Notes: generated by a model from the letters alone, not told the origin. Counted from the stretch's first letter, positions 94 through 62,561 are shown. The stretch is DNA of 64,000 bases from an uncultured Clostridia bacterium (GCA_934754475.1 CAKVHV010000002.1:951-64950); one strand, 5' to 3'. Translations and numbers: made by a program.

Positions 94-2172
94 TTAGTTA
101 TTCTTATATATTTTAACAAGTAATTCTTGACTAAAATTATTCCAATTGCTATCATCAGAAACATAAATTTTTATAAATAAATTATAATAATCTTCTGTGC
201 TTTCAACGGTTGTTAAGTCAGTTTCTAAAACAAACTTTTGATAACTTGAATTTTTACCTGCAATTGGTTCAAAACGTCCAGTAATATTGCTTGTAATTTC
301 GATAGGATCACTACCGCCATTATAGAAATTATAAGTTCCTTCTCCCCTTGCTTCCCAAATAAAATGGACGTCTTTATAATAATCATATTCTCCAAATTTT
401 AATTCAACAGTTTTATTATCTGTATTGAATTTAATTGTTTGATCGCCAGTGTTTGCAAGATAACAATATTGTTTACTTATGTCTCCTTTTAAAATCTTCC
501 AACCATATTCAATATATCCTTCATTTTCGATTGTTTTATCGTGTTTTGTGATTGTTATATTACTATTATCATGAGTTAAATTTTTATCGTTATAATATAA
601 ATTAGGATTAATATAACATCTTATAGAATAACGACCAGCAGCTGAAGAACAAACATAAAGGTATTTATGTTCATCTTGTTCAAATTTAGCATCAGTATAA
701 ATACAATAAGATTTATTCGCTTCAAATGCTGTTTTCAAGTGTTGAGCAAGTTCTGTTTGCGTTACGTCATAAGGAATCAATGCATAATCTGGTGCATTAA
801 GTTGAAATTTCATTTCTTGAGGATTACCATTGTTATCGGTTGAATACTTAAAGCCGGATAACTCGTTTATAACATCTAATGTAGGTGCTGAATATGCAGT
901 TCTGCGAAGTATAATTGTAATTTCAAATTCTTGAGATTCAGCATAAAATTTTTCATAATAATTTTCATATTCTTTAGGCACAAATTTAACCATAGTTGTT
1001 ATTGTGTTTGTTTCCCCTTTAGTGCTATCAAAGTTATATGTTTTAGGATTGACTTCCGCAAGGGTGCCATAAATAGCAATTCTATTGTCAGCTTCATTCC
1101 AGGACTTTTCAAAATTATGCCATATCAATTCTTCACTTGTTAATTTGTTATCATTTGCTGAATTGTTATTTTCGTCATTAAGGTCAGAACTTAAAAGTAA
1201 TGATAGTTTACCATTTATTTTTGAATTACCGAAAGATGTATAACTATAACTATCACCATCTGATATGCCACGTAACATTTCATCAAGAGTGACACCTCTA
1301 CAAAGATATTTGTCAAAGGTGAAATCAATCTTAAAATTCTCTGCAGTTGCAACGATTTGTGATTTTTTTACAACAAGAGTTTGATAAGCAGAATATGATT
1401 TAAGGTAATTTCCTTGTTCTTTTATTTCAGCAAAAATCAAATATTTGCCTGGTTTAATATTTTCTAAAATTGATAATTCATTTGATAATTCACCAACTTG
1501 ATAATTTTCAGAATCAACAATTTCGTTTGGTTTTGGCAAAGCGTCAATTTCTTCTTGTGTTAGTGAAGAAATGTCATAAGCATAGTATGTTGAATCCTCT
1601 AAAATACAAATTTTCTCAATCATACTATCATCTAATTGAGTAGTGCCATTAGAAACGCTATAGTCGATACCTTTAAACTTTGTTCCATAGTAAATTTGAT
1701 TTTTACCAATATTTCCCACTCTACTTGTAACATTTAAAGTGTAGTTGCTATTATCGTTTACTTTTCGAACATCGATATTAACTTCACATGAATTGTCTTT
1801 ATAATTTAAAGTTAATCTCCAAAAGCCAGCTGTAAGATTTGAATTCTCACACATTTGAGTGTATTCTTCAAAAGTTTTAGTAACTCTACTTTCCTCGGCA
1901 CCATCAGCCGTAAAACTTACGGTTATTTGAACATTAGTCAATTCAACATTTTCATTAGAATTGTCTGAATAATATGCTTTTATTTTTATATTGTTAAGTC
2001 CAGTAGTATTACCAAAATCTCTGGTCTCGTAAATTGATGCTGAATATTCACCATCAGCCAAAGATACTTGAATGTAATTTAACTTTTTATCATTTCCACA
2101 GGCACTTAACAAAAATATGCAAGGAATAATTAAGCAAAAAGCAAAAATAAAACTCAATAATTTCTTTTTCAA
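94..2172 (-). CDS. Putative surface lipoprotein, function unknown (692 aa)
   Basis: 2079-nt ORF with a TTG start shortly after an AAGGAGGA RBS. Signal peptide plus lipobox (..IFLLSAC|GND). N/Y/T-rich sequence with no catalytic motif recognised. Confidence 0.7.
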   Translation of the reverse strand: MKKKLLSFIFAFCLIIPCIFLLSACGNDKKLNYIQVSLADGEYSASIYETRDFGNTTGLNNIKIKAYYSDNSNENVELTNVQITVSFTADGAEESRVTKTFEEYTQMCENSNLTAGFWRLTLNYKDNSCEVNIDVRKVNDNSNYTLNVTSRVGNIGKNQIYYGTKFKGIDYSVSNGTTQLDDSMIEKICILEDSTYYAYDISSLTQEEIDALPKPNEIVDSENYQVGELSNELSILENIKPGKYLIFAEIKEQGNYLKSYSAYQTLVVKKSQIVATAENFKIDFTFDKYLCRGVTLDEMLRGISDGDSYSYTSFGNSKINGKLSLLLSSDLNDENNNSANDNKLTSEELIWHNFEKSWNEADNRIAIYGTLAEVNPKTYNFDSTKGETNTITTMVKFVPKEYENYYEKFYAESQEFEITIILRRTAYSAPTLDVINELSGFKYSTDNNGNPQEMKFQLNAPDYALIPYDVTQTELAQHLKTAFEANKSYCIYTDAKFEQDEHKYLYVCSSAAGRYSIRCYINPNLYYNDKNLTHDNSNITITKHDKTIENEGYIEYGWKILKGDISKQYCYLANTGDQTIKFNTDNKTVELKFGEYDYYKDVHFIWEARGEGTYNFYNGGSDPIEITSNITGRFEPIAGKNSSYQKFVLETDLTTVESTEDYYNLFIKIYVSDDSNWNNFSQELLVKIYKNN

Positions 2173-2664
2173 TTTATTTTCCTCCTTAAAATTGAATTTC
2201 TATTTTTATTATAGCATATATTTTAAGAAATCTTATACAAAATTTTAACTTTTTCAAAAATTTGTTTTAGTTTCATCAATATTTTTTAATTTAATCTATT
2301 ATAAATACCTATAATTAACAACTATCAAAAAATAGCACTAGAAAATAAAAATTGAAAAACTTATATTGATTTTTAAGATTTTTTATTTATATTTTTTGTC
2401 AAAAAATACTTTGTTTCACATCTGTCTAAAATTAGACACCAAAAACTTAAATAAAATTAGGAGAATTGCTACAAAACGAAATAAAATTATATAACATGAA
2501 TTCGCTAGGTAAAATAAGGGAATAAAGAGATTTTTAAGTCATAAAATAAGCCATTTTAACAAGTTTTAATCACACCACTGTGTTGCATTGGGTCCAATCT
2601 TTAACTTTTCATTTAATTATCCTTTATTTGGCTTTTATTGATTTTTTTCTTCCAAATATTTTTG

Positions 2665-3252
2665 TTAATTTTTTATTTTTTGTTCATTCTTTTTTATAAG
2701 TTCGCTCGTTGTATAAATTTGTGTCACTTCAAAATTTGTTGGATTTAATGCTTTTAGGTCATTGTAAAGTTGTTCAGAAATAACCATTTGAGCTCCATCT
2801 TTTATATAGAAAAAATTATAGTTATTTGGTATATTATTTATAATTACACTCTTTATAGCTGTTCCCAAAACTCCATCCATTACACTATTTTCTCTATCTA
2901 GCACATCTATTTTATACTTTGTCCTTAGAATATAGTATGGTTTTAAAATCCCTTCATCTTTTGCAAAACACTTGTAAAATTCTATTTCATCAGAATATTT
3001 TTCTTTAAGCATCGTATATATTCTTTCAGAAACTATAAGTTCAGCCCAGTCGTTAAGTAGAAAATCTGATATGGGTTCGTCATTTTTATAACTCTTATCT
3101 CTTTCAAAGATGATTGGAGTGTTAGAAAACCCCTTAAACGATTTTCCAATATCCATAAATTCATAATATTCAACATATGGTTCATAATCATTTAAAAAGT
3201 TTGCATACTTTTTTGCACAATTTGTTACTAATCTAATTTCAAAATATTTCAT
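2665..3252 (-). CDS. Hypothetical protein, weakly resembling Imm11/DUF1629-type immunity proteins
   Basis: 195-aa ORF with an ATG start. The segments ..ELIVSERIYTMLKE..EIEF.. and ..MVISEQLYNDLKAL..NFEV.. recall the DUF1629 pattern. The family assignment is from memory only. Confidence 0.4.
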   Translation of the reverse strand: MKYFEIRLVTNCAKKYANFLNDYEPYVEYYEFMDIGKSFKGFSNTPIIFERDKSYKNDEPISDFLLNDWAELIVSERIYTMLKEKYSDEIEFYKCFAKDEGILKPYYILRTKYKIDVLDRENSVMDGVLGTAIKSVIINNIPNNYNFFYIKDGAQMVISEQLYNDLKALNPTNFEVTQIYTTSELIKKNEQKIKN

Positions 3253-3350
3253 CTATTAATTCTCTCTTATCTCCAAAATACCTTATATTTACTATCTGGA
3301 TTATTCATAACTTTGTTAAATGTTTTAATTTAATCATTTGTTATCCTGAA

Positions 3351-3998
3351 TTATTTCAATTTATCTTGTTCTTCTTGCGGAATCTCCCAGTCTATATCTC
3401 CCCAAAAAGAATTTGCAATTGCCGGAATCTTTCTACACCACTTTTCTTTGTTTGGGTGTTTGCGATAACCATTTTCATCATATTCTGGAGTTAAATATTT
3501 AAAATAATAATCCATCAATTCTTTTATTGAATTAAAGACTTTAATAGGTTCTACTATTCCATTTGGCGAAACATATATTTTTGGATTGTTAATCTCAGAT
3601 TGTTTATAATAAAAATTATAATTTCCCACTCCGCCAAAAAACACAATATCATCCAAAATTTGCTTGGAAATTTTTTTATCGGTTATTTCTTGATGTTTAT
3701 TGTAATCATTCAAAAAGAACTCCATAGGTCTCGACACCCCTACACCCAATCCATATATAACTATAGAAGAAATAAATAAACGACAACCATTGTAGAATTT
3801 ATAAAATTCTTTTAATTCTGGCAACAACACTATATTGTATGTTTTTTCAAAATTATCATAATAATTCTTATCAATTTTTTTACATAGATAGTGCAAATAT
3901 GTCTCACCTGATATTTCTTTCATGACAACATAAACTTTACCTTCATCGTTGTCTTTCTCTAATTTCCATTTCTTTTGCAATAACTCATCTAAGTACAT
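3351..3998 (-). CDS. SMI1/KNR4 (SUKH-1) family protein, immunity-protein-like
   Basis: LPELKEFYKFYNG and FFGGVGNYNFYY motifs are typical of SMI1/KNR4. ATG 3998 follows GGAGAG by 6 nt, so it is preferred over the TTG 4010 of the ORF track. Confidence 0.6.
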   Translation of the reverse strand: MYLDELLQKKWKLEKDNDEGKVYVVMKEISGETYLHYLCKKIDKNYYDNFEKTYNIVLLPELKEFYKFYNGCRLFISSIVIYGLGVGVSRPMEFFLNDYNKHQEITDKKISKQILDDIVFFGGVGNYNFYYKQSEINNPKIYVSPNGIVEPIKVFNSIKELMDYYFKYLTPEYDENGYRKHPNKEKWCRKIPAIANSFWGDIDWEIPQEEQDKLK

Positions 3999-4098
3999 AA
4001 TTCTCTCCAAAAAGTCTAATTTTGTCCATTACACAAGTATCCCTAACAATATATCTTTTATTTAGACTCATCCAAAATCCGTTTATTGACAACCATCA

Positions 4099-4485: not shown

Positions 4486-5063
4486 AAAGTCTCCTTAAAA
4501 ATATTCTCATTGCCTTTGTAACACAAAGGGTTTGCGGGTGATGTGTGATAAATTGGAATAGCTATTTTGGTTTTGTCTCCAATCTTTATTTCAAATATTT
4601 TGCCTACCACTCTGCAAAGTTTATCTATTTTTATGTCAAGTATGGTTTCTGTTGGATGTTTTCCCATAGGAAGAATAATGTCAAAATCATAATTTTCAAG
4701 TTGTTTAAGTAGTATTGGTTTGCAATTTTGAGAACACTCTCGAAGTCTTTTCCTATCTTCTATTATACATTTACAGACTTCTGTAAAATACACATCATCC
4801 AGCGTCAATCCACACAAATTCAATAATCGCTCAAGTACTTTTCCAGTAGATTGCAATTTTCCATTTATATTATAAAATGCTTTTTTTGAAACAATCCAAC
4901 CATCCTTTGCGGGAGACTCACCCAAAATTAGAATTTTGGATTTTCCAGTTTTCATTGAATCGCATTTCAATTTTGGCAAACTACCACATTTATTACAATC
5001 TTCTATTACCTTTAAAATATCGTCGTTATCTTGAGATTTCTTTATCAATGAATTTTCTAACAT
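4464..5063 (-). CDS. Uracil-DNA glycosylase superfamily protein (family 4/5-like)
   Basis: ILILGESPAKDGW resembles UDG motif A and IYHTSPANP resembles motif B. ATG 5063 chosen (the track uses TTG 5072). It overlaps the 3' end of the upstream gene by 38 nt. Confidence 0.55.
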   Translation of the reverse strand: MLENSLIKKSQDNDDILKVIEDCNKCGSLPKLKCDSMKTGKSKILILGESPAKDGWIVSKKAFYNINGKLQSTGKVLERLLNLCGLTLDDVYFTEVCKCIIEDRKRLRECSQNCKPILLKQLENYDFDIILPMGKHPTETILDIKIDKLCRVVGKIFEIKIGDKTKIAIPIYHTSPANPLCYKGNENIFKETLCNILQS

Positions 5064-5397
5064 ATTCTTCAACCTTATCTTTCAATAATTCAAATCTTTC
5101 TTTTACATTAGCTTTGTTTTGGTCTGGTTGCTTGACAACACTATTTGAGTAATCTAAGTCGTAATCAAACTGCTCTTTTGTTAAGTCGACCACATGATTA
5201 TTTATTACATTAAAATAATGAGATTCAATATTATGCCTACATATATCTCCACCAAAGTAATACTGCACAAGCAATGCTGTAGGCACACATTGTCCACAAG
5301 TCGGATTCTCTTTGCTCCATTTGTCTTGCCAGTCAGGATGTGCAGTTTCCTTTGAATATACTTCCAACAAAATTTTTTTCAATTCGTCAATTGTCAT
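5026..5397 (-). CDS. Small conserved protein, YunG-like, function unknown
   Basis: 123 aa. NPTCGQCVPTALLVQYYFGGDI..HYFN..VVDLTKEQF resembles YunG-type proteins (from memory). Confidence 0.4.
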   Translation of the reverse strand: MTIDELKKILLEVYSKETAHPDWQDKWSKENPTCGQCVPTALLVQYYFGGDICRHNIESHYFNVINNHVVDLTKEQFDYDLDYSNSVVKQPDQNKANVKERFELLKDKVEEYVRKFIDKEISR

Positions 5398-18479: not shown

Positions 18480-19807
18480 TAACCATTCTCCTTGTCTGAT
18501 TTGCTTCTAAGTATAATTCTAATTGGAGTGCCTTTGAAATCAACCGCATTACGAATACAATTTTCCAAATATCTCAAATATGAAAAGTGCATAAGTTCCT
18601 TGTCATTAACAAAGACAATAAAAGTTGGTGGAGCGACGTCGGCTTGAGTCATGTAATAAATCTTGCATCTCTTTCCCTTTTGAATTGGTGGTTCGTTGAC
18701 AGCAACAGCATTAGTAATTATTTCGTTAAGCATGCTTGTGCCAATTCTAAAATTAGATTTAGCATAAACTTGTTCGACATTTTCCATAATTTTATTTAGT
18801 CTTTGACCAGTCAAAGCAGATACATAAACTGGAACAAAGTAACTCATAAATTTAAGGTCTTCATTCAAATCATCATTAAATTTATTCATCGAATATGAGT
18901 CTTTTTCAATCAAATCCCACTTGTTCATAACAACAATGCTAGGCTTTCCTTCTTCGTGAATAAATCCGGCTATACGTGTATCTTGTTCGGATAGTCCACT
19001 ACTTGCATCAACAACCAACAAAACCACATCTGCTCTACGAATAGCATCAAAAGCCCTAAGAACACTATAAAGTTCTACACTTTCGTTAGGAACAGACCTT
19101 TTTCGTCTAATTCCTGCGGTATCTATTAGCAAATATTCCTTTCCATTATAATTAAATGGTGTATCAATTGCATCTCTAGTAGTTCCGGCAACCGAACTAA
19201 CCATAACCCTATTTTCACCAAGTAATTTATTAATAATTGAACTTTTGCCAGCATTTGGCTTTCCTACAACAGCAATTTTAATCTTTTTGGCATCTTCTTC
19301 GGCAGAAATCTTAGTTTTAAAATATTTAACACATTCGTCCAAAATATCCCCAAGACCCTTGTTATTTTCCGCACTGCAAGCAAAAGGTTCGCCTAGCCCT
19401 AAGGAATAAAATTCATAAGTATTTTCAACTTGATTATTGTCTAGTTTGTTAACAACAAGCACAACTGGAACATTGTATTTTCTCAAAAAATTTGCGACAT
19501 CATAGTCTGCCGACACCAAACCTTCCTTGCCATCAACCATAAAGATAACAACATCGGCTAGTTCAACAGCAATTTCCGCTTGACGAGTTATATTATTTTG
19601 AAACTCGTCTTTGTTTTTTATATCCAAACCACCAGTATCTACAATAGAAAAAGCATAGCCACACCATTCGGCATCACCATAAATTCTATCTCGAGTAACC
19701 CCCGGCATATCTTTGACAATACTAATTCGTCTACCACAAATAGTGTTAAAAAAAGTACTTTTTCCAACATTTGGTCTACCAATCAAAGCAACTAATGGTT
19801 TTCGCAT
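18479..19807 (-). CDS. der: Ribosome-associated GTPase Der (EngA)
   Basis: Two GTPase domains (GRPNVGKST and GKPNAGKSS, DTGG and DTAG, NKLD and NKWD) plus a KH-like C-terminus. Confidence 0.95.
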   Translation of the reverse strand: MRKPLVALIGRPNVGKSTFFNTICGRRISIVKDMPGVTRDRIYGDAEWCGYAFSIVDTGGLDIKNKDEFQNNITRQAEIAVELADVVIFMVDGKEGLVSADYDVANFLRKYNVPVVLVVNKLDNNQVENTYEFYSLGLGEPFACSAENNKGLGDILDECVKYFKTKISAEEDAKKIKIAVVGKPNAGKSSIINKLLGENRVMVSSVAGTTRDAIDTPFNYNGKEYLLIDTAGIRRKRSVPNESVELYSVLRAFDAIRRADVVLLVVDASSGLSEQDTRIAGFIHEEGKPSIVVMNKWDLIEKDSYSMNKFNDDLNEDLKFMSYFVPVYVSALTGQRLNKIMENVEQVYAKSNFRIGTSMLNEIITNAVAVNEPPIQKGKRCKIYYMTQADVAPPTFIVFVNDKELMHFSYLRYLENCIRNAVDFKGTPIRIILRSKSDKENG

Positions 19808-20083
19808 CTTATTTCTCCTTATTCCTTTTTTGATAAGTATAATCTAGGAAGATTAAACAAAGTCGTCCCCACGGACACCTTGTTTTAATCTGACGAAGTT
19901 TTCAATCTATATGCCCACGATTTATCGTGGTTGTTGCTTTTTAAAGCAACGTGAGATTTGGTGCAACCTAATTTCACTTTTACACATTCCTTATCACACA
20001 TTCCTTATGATTATTGATTATATTATCGGAAGTTGTCGGCAAGCAGCCCAAAGGGATATTTGCCAGCAACTGATGTTTATTCA

Positions 20084-20166
20084 ATCTATGTAACCACGAT
20101 TTATCGTGGTGTTTGCGATAGCAAATTGTTTTGTGAATGTAATGAACAAAGCAATATCACATAGAT
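20084..20166 (+). ncRNA. Candidate structured RNA module, family C type B
   Basis: Closing stem atctatgt/acatagat encloses three hairpins: CCACGA..TCGTGG, TTTGC-gata-GCAAA and TTGTTTTGT-N11-ACAAAGCAA (one G.U). Confidence 0.45.
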
Positions 20167-20234
20167 TATAATCTAGGAAGATTAAACAAAGTCGTCCCCA
20201 CAGGACACCTTGTTTTAATCTGACGACGTTTTCA

Positions 20235-20319
20235 ATCTATATGTCCACGATTTATCGTGGTTGTTGCTTTTTAAAGCAACGTGAAATTTGGTGCAACCTA
20301 ATTTCACTAACATATAGAT
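20235..20319 (+). ncRNA. Candidate structured RNA module, family C type A
   Basis: Closing stem atctatatg/catatagat encloses three hairpins: CCACGA..TCGTGG, GTTGCTTT-tt-AAAGCAAC and GTGAAATT-N11-AATTTCAC. Confidence 0.45.
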
Positions 20320-20423
20320 TATAACATATGTGCAAAAAAAACAATACTTTTTTTGAAAACAAATTCAATTAAATTTATAATATCTATATCAAAACAAAAA
20401 AATCGGCAAAAAATGCCGACTGA

Positions 20424-21527
20424 TTATTTTTTCTGACTAACATTTTTATTCTTTAGATTTTTGTAAAAAACAAAGAAAGTAGATACACAAACACCCGCTG
20501 AGAGAATTATTACAACAGAAATTGCAAACAATTCACTTTTGTTGTTTTCTTTTGATTCCAAAGCCTTGTTTATAACCTTGTTTTCTTTGTCTTCGACACC
20601 ATTAATTGTTAATTCCCCACTTGTGTTATTTACTGTCGTGTTATAAAGCGATGTTGTAATAACATCAGACAATTCCTTCATGCTATCCAAAAGCAAATCT
20701 TTTTCACACAAGTGTGAACCCATTTCAAATAGTATCGCCTTGCTACTGAGTTCTTGGTTATAATGTCCCCTTGCATAATAAATATCTGTAAAGAGCCAAG
20801 GATAAAGTTCATTTCCGACAGTCATAAGATATGTAGCAAATTCTTCGTTAAGTTTCATGTTTGGGTTTGCTTTCCCTACAACTATTCGAACTCTTCCACG
20901 TTCTTTGCCGTCAATGTTTGTTACATAGTATTTTCTACTTGCACCATCTCTATGTATATCAAAAATCGCATCGGGACTATATTGGGAAATCAAATTTTTG
21001 GCGGTTTTGACACTACGTGAATATGCTTGAGTATCATGTGGAATATGCAAAGTGTCATTAAGATAAACATCAATCATATTTTTTTCCAACTCACTTTTGA
21101 GTGCCAACGCAACATCCTTTATGCCACCATTTCCATAAACACTATCCACACCATCAGTTGGAACATAACTTTCGTCATTATGAGTCATGTACATGCAGAT
21201 AGTTCGCTTTTCAACTTTGATAGGTGCTGGAAGATAAGATTTTTCAATTTTGGGCTTTTCTACATCTCTTACAAATTTTGCAATTCCCTTGTGACTATCT
21301 TTATCAAGATAAATGATTTCGTAATACTTAAAGTCGTTAGACATATAACTATCACCAATTTCAACTTCATCTCTTTCAAATAACAAGTTGAAATTTTCAT
21401 CATAGATTGAGTAAATTGGCATATCACTTTCAAAAAAATCCAAAGCATATATGTCGCTTCTCAAACTACTTAAGCACATTACAAACATTATTACTACAAG
21501 CGATAATATTACAGAAATTTTTTTCAT
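20424..21527 (-). CDS. spoIIP: Stage II sporulation protein P
   Basis: N-terminal TM anchor, then MYMTHNDESY and FDIHRDG motifs as in SpoIIP amidase/peptidase. Strong GGAG RBS before ATG 21527. A second TM helix at the C-terminus. Confidence 0.75.
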   Translation of the reverse strand: MKKISVILSLVVIMFVMCLSSLRSDIYALDFFESDMPIYSIYDENFNLLFERDEVEIGDSYMSNDFKYYEIIYLDKDSHKGIAKFVRDVEKPKIEKSYLPAPIKVEKRTICMYMTHNDESYVPTDGVDSVYGNGGIKDVALALKSELEKNMIDVYLNDTLHIPHDTQAYSRSVKTAKNLISQYSPDAIFDIHRDGASRKYYVTNIDGKERGRVRIVVGKANPNMKLNEEFATYLMTVGNELYPWLFTDIYYARGHYNQELSSKAILFEMGSHLCEKDLLLDSMKELSDVITTSLYNTTVNNTSGELTINGVEDKENKVINKALESKENNKSELFAISVVIILSAGVCVSTFFVFYKNLKNKNVSQKK

Positions 21528-27413: not shown

Positions 27414-27494
27414 AAATAAATGGTTTACATAATTATTTGATTTAATGCAAATTTTTGTAATAAAAAAATTATTTTTGCTTCATACTACTAAAAA

Positions 27495-27538
27495 TTGGAA
27501 AATAATTCCAATAAATTTGGAAAATAATTCCAATAAAT
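27495..27538. promoter_or_regulatory. Two exact tandem 22-bp units, each containing the palindrome TTGGAA-N5-TTCCAA (candidate operator)
   Basis: ttggaaaataattccaataaat occurs twice, head to tail, in the divergent intergenic region. Confidence 0.4.
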
Positions 27539-27540
27539 GA

Positions 27541-27675
27541 ATCTATGTTACATGCTTTGTTAATTTCATTCACAAATCAACTTGCTATCGCAAATTCCAC
27601 GATTAAATCGTGGTAACATAGATTGATAAACATCAGTTTTGCTTGAAAATGACTTCGTCGCTTTCAGACAAAACT
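27541..27675 (-). repeat. Single family C module (type B) in inverted orientation
   Basis: Core at 27541-27623: closing stem atctatgtta/taacatagat, CCACGA-ttta-TCGTGG and TTTGC-gata-GCAAA on the minus strand. The leader shares ctgatgtttatcaatctatg with 20070-20090. Confidence 0.85.
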
Positions 27676-27908
27676 TTTAATAAATTTGAAAAATGTTTTC
27701 AATATAAATGGAAGTTATTTTCAAAAGTGTAAGATAAATTTTTAAGATAAAATAAAATTTATATTCAAAAAAATTGTCTACTATGTATAACTTATATATT
27801 TAATTAATTATAAATAACCTTTAAAATACCCTAAAATTACTTGAATAGAAAATTAAAATAGTATATAATTACTAGGTGTAACAAATTAATAAAAAAGGTG
27901 AACAATCT

Positions 27909-51469: not shown

Positions 51470-52801
51470 TTAGATTTCCTTGCCGGATTCTTTATCTTCT
51501 CTAGCTTTAGCATTATTTATTGTTCGTTGATAATTATCTATAAAGTATTCATTAAACTTTCTAATTTTGTCGTCACTTAAACTTTTAGCACAAGTTTCCG
51601 GATGAGATTTGTCGCCTATCAAATCAGTTTTGAACTTGCCAGAATTCCAAATATAGTCATAAATTATGTGTGCTTCTCTACTTAATTCTCGAGAACTTCT
51701 ACGAACAATTTGTCCATCCACATTCTTTGAATCCATACCAAGCCATTCTTTATCTTTTTTAACACTAGAATGTAAAGAATAAGCAATAGTTTTTCCACTT
51801 GGGTCTTGTATATTATAGTACCCAGCATCGTTTATTTTACCCTTGCCTTCTGCAATAGCCTTTTGCACTTCGTTTTTGCAATACTCATCATACCAATCAT
51901 AAGCATCTTTGATAAGTTTAAGAGTTGTCAAATTGGTTGTATCTACAAATTCTACAGTTTTGGTTTCCTTTGGTGGAGTTGTTTGTGTATTCTGTGAAGT
52001 TTGAGAAAAATTAAATGAGTATGTTTTTCCTTCAACCTTTCTTTCTGGCTCTGATTGAAACTTGGTTGCCGACTGACTAGTTGATGAATTAGTAGCAGTT
52101 CTCCCATTTACTTCACTTTCTATCTTCGACAAGTCTACACCCATTCTTTTCCACATGTCAGAATTATTATCTGGATATACATCAATATTTTTATCAATCC
52201 AATGCGGTGGTTCATTTTCATACAATTTAATTATATTTTTATAATCATCTTTAGTAGTCTTAATATCAAGCGAATTAAATAATTCATAAATATTCCTTAT
52301 ATTGGCAACATGCATAATTGTCTCGTGACTATTTTTCATAAAATTCATATCTTGCTTTTTATCGTACATTTTACTAGCAATTCCAATTGCCTTTTGAAAA
52401 GAAACATATAATCTAGCAAGTGATTCATTTTTTATTTGGTGTCCATTTTTTATTCCCGCTTCAACAAATTGAATCATTGTTCTAAAATCAATATCTTTAT
52501 ATTCACCTTTGCGTTTTAGTCTTTCTGAGAAATCTTCGGGAGTAACTTTAATATTATCTTTGGAATTTAGTCTATCAATCAAATTAGATATTGCGTTGTC
52601 CAAAATGATATCAAACTGAAGTTCCATATCAGCCTTTTTAATTTTCGCATCTTTAATAAATTGCTTTCTTTCTTCTTCTACTCTCTCTTCGTACTTTCGT
52701 CTATTTATTGTTCTCTCCAAAAATCCATTTGGTTTTGGTTTTATAAAAACCGGGGTTGCAGTATACCCATTAATATAATTTAATATTTCTTCTTTTGTCA
52801 T
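51470..52801 (-). CDS. Hypothetical two-domain protein (443 aa) with S/T/Q-rich linker
   Basis: ATG 52801 lies 6 nt after AAGGA. No signal peptide and no recognised family. Confidence 0.6.
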   Translation of the reverse strand: MTKEEILNYINGYTATPVFIKPKPNGFLERTINRRKYEERVEEERKQFIKDAKIKKADMELQFDIILDNAISNLIDRLNSKDNIKVTPEDFSERLKRKGEYKDIDFRTMIQFVEAGIKNGHQIKNESLARLYVSFQKAIGIASKMYDKKQDMNFMKNSHETIMHVANIRNIYELFNSLDIKTTKDDYKNIIKLYENEPPHWIDKNIDVYPDNNSDMWKRMGVDLSKIESEVNGRTATNSSTSQSATKFQSEPERKVEGKTYSFNFSQTSQNTQTTPPKETKTVEFVDTTNLTTLKLIKDAYDWYDEYCKNEVQKAIAEGKGKINDAGYYNIQDPSGKTIAYSLHSSVKKDKEWLGMDSKNVDGQIVRRSSRELSREAHIIYDYIWNSGKFKTDLIGDKSHPETCAKSLSDDKIRKFNEYFIDNYQRTINNAKAREDKESGKEI

Positions 52802-52857: not shown

Positions 52858-52888
52858 AGTATACCCCCCCCCCAAGGAATTTTGTCAA
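52858..52888 (-). promoter_or_regulatory. Near-consensus promoter with a G10 tract in a 19-nt spacer
   Basis: The minus strand reads TTGACA-aaattcctt-GGGGGGGGGG-TATACT. The -10 box ends 56 nt upstream of ATG 52801. Confidence 0.6.
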
Positions 52889-62075: not shown

Positions 62076-62253
62076 TTTTGTTTTCTCCTTAATTGCCTAT
62101 TTTATAAGATTTTTTGTATTTTGCATAGTACTTATGCATAGTAGTAATAAATAGACTTGATTTAAAATTTATTATACATTGCAAATAAAATCTAGGAAGT
62201 TGAGAGTAACACAAGTGTTTTAAATTTGTATTACCGAAACGACGACGTTTTCA

Positions 62254-62337
62254 ATCTATGTGACCACGATTTCATCGTGGCATTTGCGATAGCAAATTGG
62301 TTTGTGAATGTAATGAACAAAGCAACTTTACATGGAT
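62254..62337 (+). ncRNA. Candidate structured RNA module, family C type B
   Basis: Closing stem atctatgt/acatggat with a U.G pair at 62257/62334. Hairpins as in 20084-20166. Confidence 0.45.
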
Positions 62338-62407
62338 TATAATAATCTAAGAAGATTAAACAAAGTCGTCCGCTAGGACACCTTGATTTAATCTGACGAC
62401 GATTTCA

Positions 62408-62490
62408 ATCTATGTGACCACGATTTTATCGTGGGTTTGCGATAGCAAATTGGTTTGTGAATGCAATGAACAAACCAATATCACATAGAT
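62408..62490 (+). ncRNA. Candidate structured RNA module, family C type B
   Basis: Perfect closing stem and a perfect fourth hairpin, TTGGTTTGT/ACAAACCAA. Confidence 0.45.
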
Positions 62491-62561
62491 TATAACAGAT
62501 TTTATTAATATAAGCAAAAAAAGTTGAACCTAAAAATTCAACTTTTTTTAAAAACAAATAA

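Follow-up and report, generated by a model that had tools for sequence, protein, structure and literature searches.

A mosaic, cloverleaf-forming repeat with dif-like unit boundaries at promoter -10 boxes in uncultured gut Clostridia: a candidate Xer-dependent mobile module

Integrative mobile elements exploiting Xer recombination (IMEX), among them the CTX, VGJ and TLC phages of Vibrio and the gonococcal genetic island, are kilobase-sized, gene-carrying elements found at the single chromosomal dif site, and the named cases come from Proteobacteria. In Firmicutes, dif has the consensus ACTTCC[T/G]ATAA-TATATA-TTATGTAAACT, and the site of B. subtilis reads ACTTCCTAGAA-TATATA-TTATGTAAACT (Kono 2011, PMC3025954). 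Here we describe a short non-coding repeat in 64,000 nucleotides of DNA from an uncultured Clostridia bacterium (GCA_934754475.1 CAKVHV010000002.1:951-64950; hereafter the window, numbered from its first base). Its units form arrays between spoIIP and der and at other promoters, meet at a core resembling dif, and begin directly behind the TATAAT hexamers of host promoters. Comparison with related sequences makes it very probable that the repeat is a mobile element, and the form of its boundaries suggests how it might move.

The largest array occupies 490 bases of the spoIIP-der spacer (19838-20325), where three repeat units follow one another head-to-tail on the plus strand, while both flanking genes lie on the minus strand. 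The array and its coordinates, as given in an original prediction made from the sequence alone, were borne out when the sequence was re-checked, as were the two complete cloverleaves (20083-20167, type B; 20234-20320, type A), a first type A copy (19904-19977) that lacks its 3' closing strand, and the pairs 19955/19973 and 20129/20151, which are G.T on the plus strand. The module of ~85 nt proposed at the time describes the core but not the whole unit, which measures ~145-150 nt and joins a ~60-nt leader hairpin (a GGAAG box, a hairpin of ~40 nt, then CTGAYG..TTC) to a ~85-nt four-helix cloverleaf. The core is closed by stem P0 (AATCTATRT/AYATAGATT) and contains the nearly invariant hairpin P1 (CCACGA-loop-TCGTGG) and the variable hairpins P2 and P3; positions 20023-20082, previously left unassigned, are a second type of leader and also a module. 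Further units lie at 27540-27678 (minus strand; cloverleaf at 27540-27624) and at 62190-62491 (two units; cloverleaves at 62253-62338 and 62407-62491). The P1 hairpin pattern occurs seven times in the window against 0.15 expected, and the leader box three times against 0.32; chance is excluded as the source of the arrayed motifs.

On the minus strand, all inter-unit junctions read [A/T]CTTCC[T/G]A[G/T]A[A/T]-TATAAT-[C/T]TATGT[G/A]AT.., with two arms of ~11 bp about a 6-bp centre, in keeping with the 28-30 bp core and 6-8 bp centre of a Xer-type site. As a 28-bp core this has the architecture, the spacing and much of the sequence of dif: a XerC-type arm ACTTCC.., a TATAAT centre and a weaker XerD-type arm YTATGTRAT, with 12 nt between ACTTCC and TATGT, as in dif. 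The junction at 20154-20181 is identical to B. subtilis dif at 20 of 28 positions. Over the XerC arm and the adjoining part of the centre the agreement is complete in two boundary variants, both of them natural dif variants: ACTTCCGATAATATA (20019-20033), at the boundary of the H2 leader of unit 2, is identical (15/15) to the dif predicted for Macrococcus and, over the same 15 bases, to the Firmicutes consensus, and ACTTCCTAGAATATA, at the unit boundaries of the related loci L006 and L010, is identical (15/15) to B. subtilis dif, so that the dif arm of this CodV/RipX host, ACTTCCTAGAA, occurs there in full. When positions were scored with a weight matrix built from 17 Firmicutes dif sites, the H2 arm ranked first among XerC-type arms at 128,000 window positions, and the junction of L004 and L005 (two copies, one sequence) ranked second and third among about 930,000 positions in all fetched DNA. 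With the full 28-bp matrix the window junction ranks only 12th of 128,000, too low for the matrix to decide the matter by itself; comparing the arms one by one and scanning the pooled DNA tells more.

In terms of the unit, the GGAAG box is the core of a XerC-type arm (C-arm), and the 3' strand of the closing stem a XerD-type arm (D-arm) with half of the centre. The original prediction had recognized the perfect palindrome TAGATTATAATCTA at the unit junctions, which does lie at 20161-20174, but did not see that one dif-like core has the GGAAG box as one arm and the closing-stem strand as the other, centred on a TATAAT that is also the -10 box of the host promoter. The ends of arrays are hybrid half sites, one reading host flank-TATAAT-D-arm and the other C-arm-hexamer-host flank, while internal junctions are complete. 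This is exactly the product expected when a circle carrying a full core integrates. Where IMEX lie at chromosomal dif, the units are spread over many loci and stand in every case at the -10 box of a promoter. The individual features are as follows.

19836..19852, minus strand: promoter-proximal (attR-like) end of the array, with C-arm TCTTCCTAGAT (19842-19852) and then the hexamer TATACT (19836-19841); from this end it is 31 nt to the start codon of der
19842..19903, plus strand: leader of unit 1, type H1, with GGAAG box, ~40-nt hairpin, CTGACGAAG and TTTTC
19904..19977, plus strand: cloverleaf of unit 1, type A, truncated (39 bits); the P0 5' strand, P1, P2 and P3 are kept and the 3' closing strand (D-arm) is lost
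19978..20016, plus strand: degenerate filler in place of the lost D-arm, holding a 14-nt tandem repeat (ACACATTCCTTATC x1.9, 19982-20008)
20017..20033, minus strand: the window's best dif-like half site, ACTTCCGATAA (20023-20033), then TATAAT (20017-20022)
20023..20082, plus strand: leader of unit 2, type H2, conserved in locus L003 of another genome
20083..20167, plus strand: cloverleaf of unit 2, type B (100 bits), with P0 AATCTATGT/ACATAGATT, P1 CCACGA-TTTA-TCGTGG, P2 and P3
20154..20181, minus strand: complete inter-unit junction, with dif-like core TCTTCCTAGAT-TATAAT-CTATGTGATAT
20171..20233, plus strand: leader of unit 3, type H1
20234..20320, plus strand: cloverleaf of unit 3, type A, complete (70.6 bits)
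20307..20352, minus strand: promoter-distal (attL-like) end of the array, the host der promoter (..TTGTTTTTTTTGCACATATGT) running into TATAAT (20318-20323) and then into the D-arm CTATATGTTAG (20307-20317)
27540..27678, minus strand: solitary older unit, a type B cloverleaf (27540-27624) and an H4 leader whose C-arm is degenerate (AAAAG for GGAAG)
62190..62494, plus strand: two-unit array of an H3 leader (62190-62252), a B cloverleaf (62253-62338), a junction, an H1 leader (62345-62406) and a second B cloverleaf (62407-62491)

Beside the last of these, ~23 nt between the array and host sequence (TTTATTTGCAATGTATAATAAAT, minus strand; region 62125-62189) resemble the start of a diverged cloverleaf type from L004 (TATAATTTATGCAATGTTAAAATTT, about 1900-1970) and are probably a decayed third unit.

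Both the der array and the array at 62190 start directly after the TATAAT of a host promoter. At der, the hexamer at 20318-20323 has a TG extended -10 in front of it, and relatives without the element have the same promoter, TTGTTT..TGATATAAT; in the window this sequence leads into TATAAT and directly into the D-arm. The array at 62190 likewise terminates at the TATAAT (62489-62494, minus strand) of the promoter TTGCTT-17-TGTTATAAT of a trxB-like gene, the hexamer abutting the D-arm end. A TGn extended -10 stands immediately upstream of the D-arm hexamer at 5 of 11 array ends, compared with a background of 6% (p = 3e-4), and a -35 match of at least 5/6 at 3 of 11 (p = 0.0065). On the other side, the C-arm end is 26-35 nt from a start codon in five arrays (of these loci, L003 and L009 share flanks and look orthologous) and, by the open reading frame (ORF) call, 5 nt from one at L006; at L004 the nearest feature on this side is a tRNA gene on the opposite strand. 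In 10 of 13 arrays the C-arm side has a gene directed away from the element. The genes behind the units are unrelated to one another (der, the trxB-like gene, TauE-family genes, tRNA genes and others). We considered whether orientation could follow replication strand and rejected this, as GC skew is uniformly negative across the window and yet units occur on both strands.

Insertion places 150-490 nt between an intact promoter (-35 and TATAAT) and its gene. Inspection by eye of leader types H1, H2 and H3 turned up no convincing -35 that the element could supply to the displaced downstream hexamer; therefore der and similarly placed genes presumably depend on read-through for their expression, the units' minus strand being transcribed as a structured leader. 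The minus strand of the H1 leader has a weak terminator-like hairpin. On the plus strand, a promoter-like TGAACA-18-TATAAT is made up by the type B core together with the junction, and GGAAG stands where its transcript should start. Just past the D-arm ends of both arrays are the bidirectional intrinsic terminators of spoIIP (20391-20430) and rplQ (62516-62545), where any plus-strand array transcript would stop.

How the repeat is distributed among strains identifies it as inserted DNA. Public collections were scanned by exact pattern; they include few relatives, so the sample comprises ~20 copies. Among species-representative genomes, seven loci were found in four metagenome-assembled genomes (MAGs; Christensenellales bacterium, Clostridia HGM11346, a Hadza gut MAG and Clostridiales UBA11490), and a scan of metagenomes returned 14 loci, only four of them genuine. 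The host clade is one of uncultured gut Clostridia (Christensenellales-like MAGs). The same locus was then pulled from relatives by way of Der orthologues. The spoIIP-der spacer measures 616 bp in the window strain and 273 bp in L028-30 (Der 99% identical), where one degenerate type A unit stands at exactly the same place; the site is empty in L031 (Der 96%) and in L023-27 (93-88%). The unit at 27540 is missing from L028, despite its 99% identical Der. For the array at 62190, L038 provides an exact empty site at the trxB-like promoter: it is identical up to ..TTGCTTATATTAATAAAATCTGTTATAAT and then continues as host DNA, where in the window strain the array's end, CTATGTGATAT.., comes next. Three arrays are present in about 84 kb of this genome, and the covariance model described below (R1) finds no copy in the 20 kb flanking the window, in 100 kb of L023-27 or in 51 kb of L033-35. 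Judged by these absences, the repeat is lineage-restricted and patchy. The original prediction had proposed looking for positional polymorphism between strains, and units are indeed present in some and absent from others among close strains. It is for this reason that we see an inserted mobile DNA element here, and not primarily a family of RNA genes.

Although adjacent units are always head-to-tail, they are of different types. Neighbours that differ in type cannot be simple tandem duplications; the arrays are strictly head-to-tail mosaics of differing leaders and cores. There are at least five leader types (H1 to H5), and these combine freely with core types. The hairpin leader with CTGACGA, which had been thought to belong to type A cores, also stands, at 62345-62406, in front of a type B core, and thus leaders and cores assort independently.

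The cloverleaf itself is well conserved as a shape. Covariance model R1, of the kind that the original prediction had suggested and built from 18 copies, recovers 20 copies when the window is taken together with nine related loci. Over these 20 copies, 94.3% of cells form standard pairs, a share that drops to 35-44% once the 3' partners are slid; both sides have changed in 15 of 30 pairs, and none of 500 shuffles reaches the observed values. The alignment was fitted to the model, which inflates the covariation figures somewhat, but even allowing for this the four-helix fold is clearly maintained by compensatory changes, as the predicted cloverleaf requires. Unrelated sequences do keep one shape: over the loci, P3 occurs in five versions or more. 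The folding z-scores of single copies run from -4 to -9 as RNA and from -5.6 to -9.8 as DNA.

A strand preference is also apparent, though only in the core. Transition mismatches in stems are G.T in 18 cases and A.C in seven (16 and three when the junction-adjacent pair is left out), and for 16 of 19 cloverleaves the better fold is that of the plus strand (Wilcoxon p = 5e-4); for leaders this is so in 10 of 20, that is, with no bias. The wobble bias thus favours the plus strand as the one selected to fold, and the prediction of plus-strand folding stands for the cloverleaf and not for the leader. The folded molecule may be a plus-strand RNA or a single-stranded DNA intermediate. Conservation is concentrated in stems P0 and P1 and not in loops or the helix junction, a pattern unlike that of a ribozyme or riboswitch. 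The earlier characterization as a folded plus-strand nucleic acid of no known family therefore survives in its fold and strand bias, but not as primarily an RNA gene family. The idea of an RNA antisense to the flanking genes becomes one option only, as it is the units' minus strand that host promoters must transcribe.

Searches for known RNAs over the repeat found none. Rfam 15, a search of which the original prediction had asked for, has no match at gathering threshold over the arrays of the window and 11 related loci, and by E-value only chance-level matches (E above 1) in 19700-20500; ARAGORN places no tRNA or tmRNA over the array region. The CUGAYGA box suggested a hammerhead ribozyme, which we rejected because neither the GAAA nor the stem arrangement is present and no Rfam ribozyme matches. 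A phage or plasmid origin was likewise rejected, as viral contigs scanned twice by pattern, and phages and plasmids searched by blastn, yielded no match.

We propose, with confidence about evenly divided, that the junction is a site for an Xer-type tyrosine recombinase and that site-specific recombination is the mechanism of movement. In this reading the region is an array of a non-autonomous, non-coding mobile module of about 150 bp, which such a recombinase would move into -10 boxes. The recombinase, possibly host XerC/XerD, would be supplied in trans, and would recombine the core of the element with TATAAT-centred pseudo-sites, i.e. -10 boxes. The asymmetric TATAAT centre would fix orientation, with the dif-like core usually pointing the same way as the downstream gene, and such an asymmetric crossover would explain both the orientation bias and the head-to-tail order. 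Each insertion would recreate a full core alongside, making a hot spot at which arrays grow, and transcription from the host promoter would run on across the units, giving a long structured 5' leader. With its invariant P1 and its wobble bias towards the plus strand, the conserved fold may serve the element's own propagation, whether as a folded single-stranded DNA intermediate, as a site for an accessory protein, or as a plus-strand RNA started from the TGAACA-18-TATAAT of the junction.

The enzyme would have to act in trans because no tyrosine recombinase, transposase or larger cargo element is linked to the arrays in the fetched DNA. A tyrosine recombinase was not found in ~420 kb of this DNA (tblastn with E. 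coli XerD), a result that fits a trans-acting enzyme; 20 window ORFs scanned against Pfam include no recombinase; the window and loci hold no larger cargo element bounded by the same arms; and in no locus was a transposase or a longer relative with the same ends seen.

Several observations weigh against an Xer-type mechanism. The same lack of any recombinase linked to the element in the fetched DNA can be read this way too. Junctions score 8-15 bits, compared with 22-40 bits for genuine dif sites, mainly because the XerD-type arm is degenerate, matching at only about 7 of 11 positions. The flanks of the targets (e.g. GCACATATGT..TATCAAAAAAG) are unlike Xer arms, and the elements known to exploit Xer use dif itself as their integration site. 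A double-stranded circle of 150 bp is sterically unfavourable. Promoter-proximal boundaries are too diverged, or too encumbered with decayed units, to demonstrate a 6-bp duplication. Gene orientation is a bias and not a rule, the units of L010 and L013 lying in the same sense as both neighbours. Finally, recombination at such a core explains by itself neither the conservation of the cloverleaf nor the preference for the plus strand.

Other mechanisms could account for part of these data. A classical MITE (a miniature transposable element with inverted repeats), mobilized by a DDE transposase of the IS630/mariner-like or IS5-like kind, would have ATCTA..TAGAT as terminal inverted repeats and duplicate TA or TATA on insertion, and its likeness to dif would be coincidental. 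We consider this unlikely. The element is small, intergenic, multi-copy and polymorphic between strains, its two ends have ATCTA / TAGAT in common and mostly TATA next to them, and the junction TAGAT-TATA-ATCTA is what insertion into flanking TATA should produce; yet the inverted repeat extends for only 5-6 bp, short of the ~10 bp or more expected of such terminal repeats, beyond which one end is a C-arm and the other a D-arm. Insertion into TA or TATA, a palindrome, could not dictate orientation, and still every adjacency is head-to-tail, at least seven of them independently (roughly p = 0.008). The flanks themselves speak both ways: TATA is present at both ends of the der array, but the array at 62190 has TATAAT at one end and a promoter-proximal flank starting TTTATT, not TATA, at the other, and promoter-proximal flanks are diverged or carry decayed units. 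The transposase and the longer relative that such an element would call for were, as noted, seen in no locus, and 15/15 matches to two natural dif variants are hard to obtain by chance.

An element moved as single-stranded DNA, of the kind of IS200/IS605 palindrome-associated transposable elements (PATEs) or of repetitive extragenic palindromes (REPs) with their REP-associated tyrosine transposases (RAYTs), seems to us improbable to a similar degree. Its HUH (Y1) transposase would recognize the hairpins of the fold and insert it 3' of TATAAT in one orientation and without duplication, and insertion directly after one hexamer with no demonstrable duplication, strict orientation within arrays, hairpins with a strand-specific wobble bias and a fold stable as DNA are all in keeping with this. 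However, the active strand, having its target 5' of the element, would be the minus strand, which is not the one that the wobble pairs point to, and the left and right ends share no recognition hairpin. Each unit has one leader hairpin, a four-helix core and unlike ends, with neither a GTAG-type REP head nor inverted pairs of REPs as in REP/BIME (bacterial interspersed mosaic element) doublets; no tnpA or RAYT gene was seen nearby, and the similarity to dif is left unexplained.

That the units are primarily functional RNAs, either plus-strand small RNAs started from the junction TATAAT or minus-strand cis-acting 5' leaders, spread by duplication and recombination and not by any machinery devoted to movement, is somewhat less likely again: covariation in all four helices, the plus-strand G.U bias, the promoter-like sequence across type B junctions and the obligatory minus-strand transcription from host promoters are set against the lack of any Rfam match, the conservation of stems instead of loops, the unbiased leaders, first units of arrays that have no -35, positions upstream of unrelated genes, and a presence or absence between near-identical strains unlike that of a regulator tied to one gene.

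Four other features of the window and loci may be recorded. At 27475-27537 (plus strand), beside the unit at 27540 and upstream of TauE-family genes, a 22-bp tandem duplication, ATTTATTGGAATTATTTTCCAA x2, carries the operator-like palindrome TTGGAA-N5-TTCCAA; it is single-copy in L023, L024, L026 and L028. A C10 homopolymer at 52864-52873 falls, on the minus strand, within the 19-nt spacer (AAATTCCTT and G10) of the consensus promoter TTGACA-TATACT, just upstream of the gene for a 443-aa protein (51470..52801) and about 60 nt from its start codon, making this promoter a candidate for slipped-strand phase variation. In L005, at about 4700-5230, two direct repeats of ~190 nt come after a tRNA gene (5156-5227, minus strand), and each of them ends in a copy of the tRNA 3' end, GAGTCCCCTTAGGAGTACCA; these look like att-site duplications from elements integrated at the tRNA gene. 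At positions 94-4010 (minus strand), a 692-aa protein that has no Pfam family in the precomputed gene table adjoins Imm11 and SUKH (SMI1/KNR4) immunity-family genes, together reading as a polymorphic-toxin-like locus. As for annotation, the array creates spurious ORFs and inflates intergenic regions in these MAGs; the 60-aa ORF at 19911 does sit within the repeats, as first pointed out, and close relatives lack these repeats.

A full-text literature search on sequence strings and on Xer, IMEX and repeat terms found no prior description of the repeat. We suggest tentatively, with the balance of our judgement on the other side, that it may represent an undescribed class of miniature Xer-hijacking elements, 150 bp long and non-coding, defined by a TATAAT crossover, promoter homing in one fixed orientation, mosaic arrays and a cloverleaf four-way junction of the plus strand that would act as a recombination or replication intermediate or as a guide-like RNA. 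If movement does work through Xer, it would be, to our knowledge, the smallest element known to exploit Xer-type recombination and the first to target promoters instead of dif: a selfish element aimed at the -10 box itself, by whose insertion der and other core genes exchange a short 5' leader for a long and structured one. It would then offer a natural system for promoter rewiring in uncultured gut Clostridia, and, with dif-like sites scattered over a chromosome, one has to ask what keeps Xer from deleting the DNA between them.

Several known repeats and elements resemble the units in part. Pneumococcal BOX, Neisseria intergenic mosaic elements (NIME) with dRS3, and Correia elements are also short modules of several types, arranged in arrays with palindromic junctions and stable folds, and they too stand next to promoters with possible effects on expression, but their sequences are unrelated and their junctions of a different type; we know of none reported with a four-helix cloverleaf core or dif-like ends, and a literature search found nothing comparable. 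REP/BIME-RAYT systems and IS200/IS605 PATEs share with the units a hairpin-forming, strand-asymmetric, intergenic and target-specific character with no obvious duplication; the units differ in having no GTAG head, inverted REP doublets or matching terminal hairpins, and in a favoured strand that is wrong for the mechanism. Integron cassettes with their attC sites also form arrays in one orientation, conserve shape over sequence, favour one strand and are handled by a tyrosine recombinase. In contrast to these, the units have no R''/R' boxes (RYYYAAC / GTTRRRY), the closing stem AATCTATGT/ACATAGATT in particular lacking a GTTRRRY box; there is no intI, attI platform or other integrase nearby, and units are dispersed inside promoters and not collected behind one promoter. 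The pdif (XerC/XerD-like) modules of Acinetobacter plasmids are likewise discrete modules, bounded by Xer-type sites and shuffled into mosaics; they are plasmid-borne and gene-carrying and their sites alternate, whereas the units are chromosomal and non-coding with all sites direct. The IMEX have these points in common with the units: a core like that of dif, good in its XerC arm and degenerate in its XerD arm, the lack of an own integrase nearby, hybrid end sites, head-to-tail tandems that rebuild a full internal site and, in CTX, use of a folded single strand. A CTX-like fold making the C-arm double-stranded was considered for the units and rejected by eye, as the opposing strand is not complementary and no core is rebuilt as in CTX attP(+). 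Set beside IMEX, then, the units share the core, the ends and the tandems, but at about 150 bp, non-coding and dispersed at many promoters.

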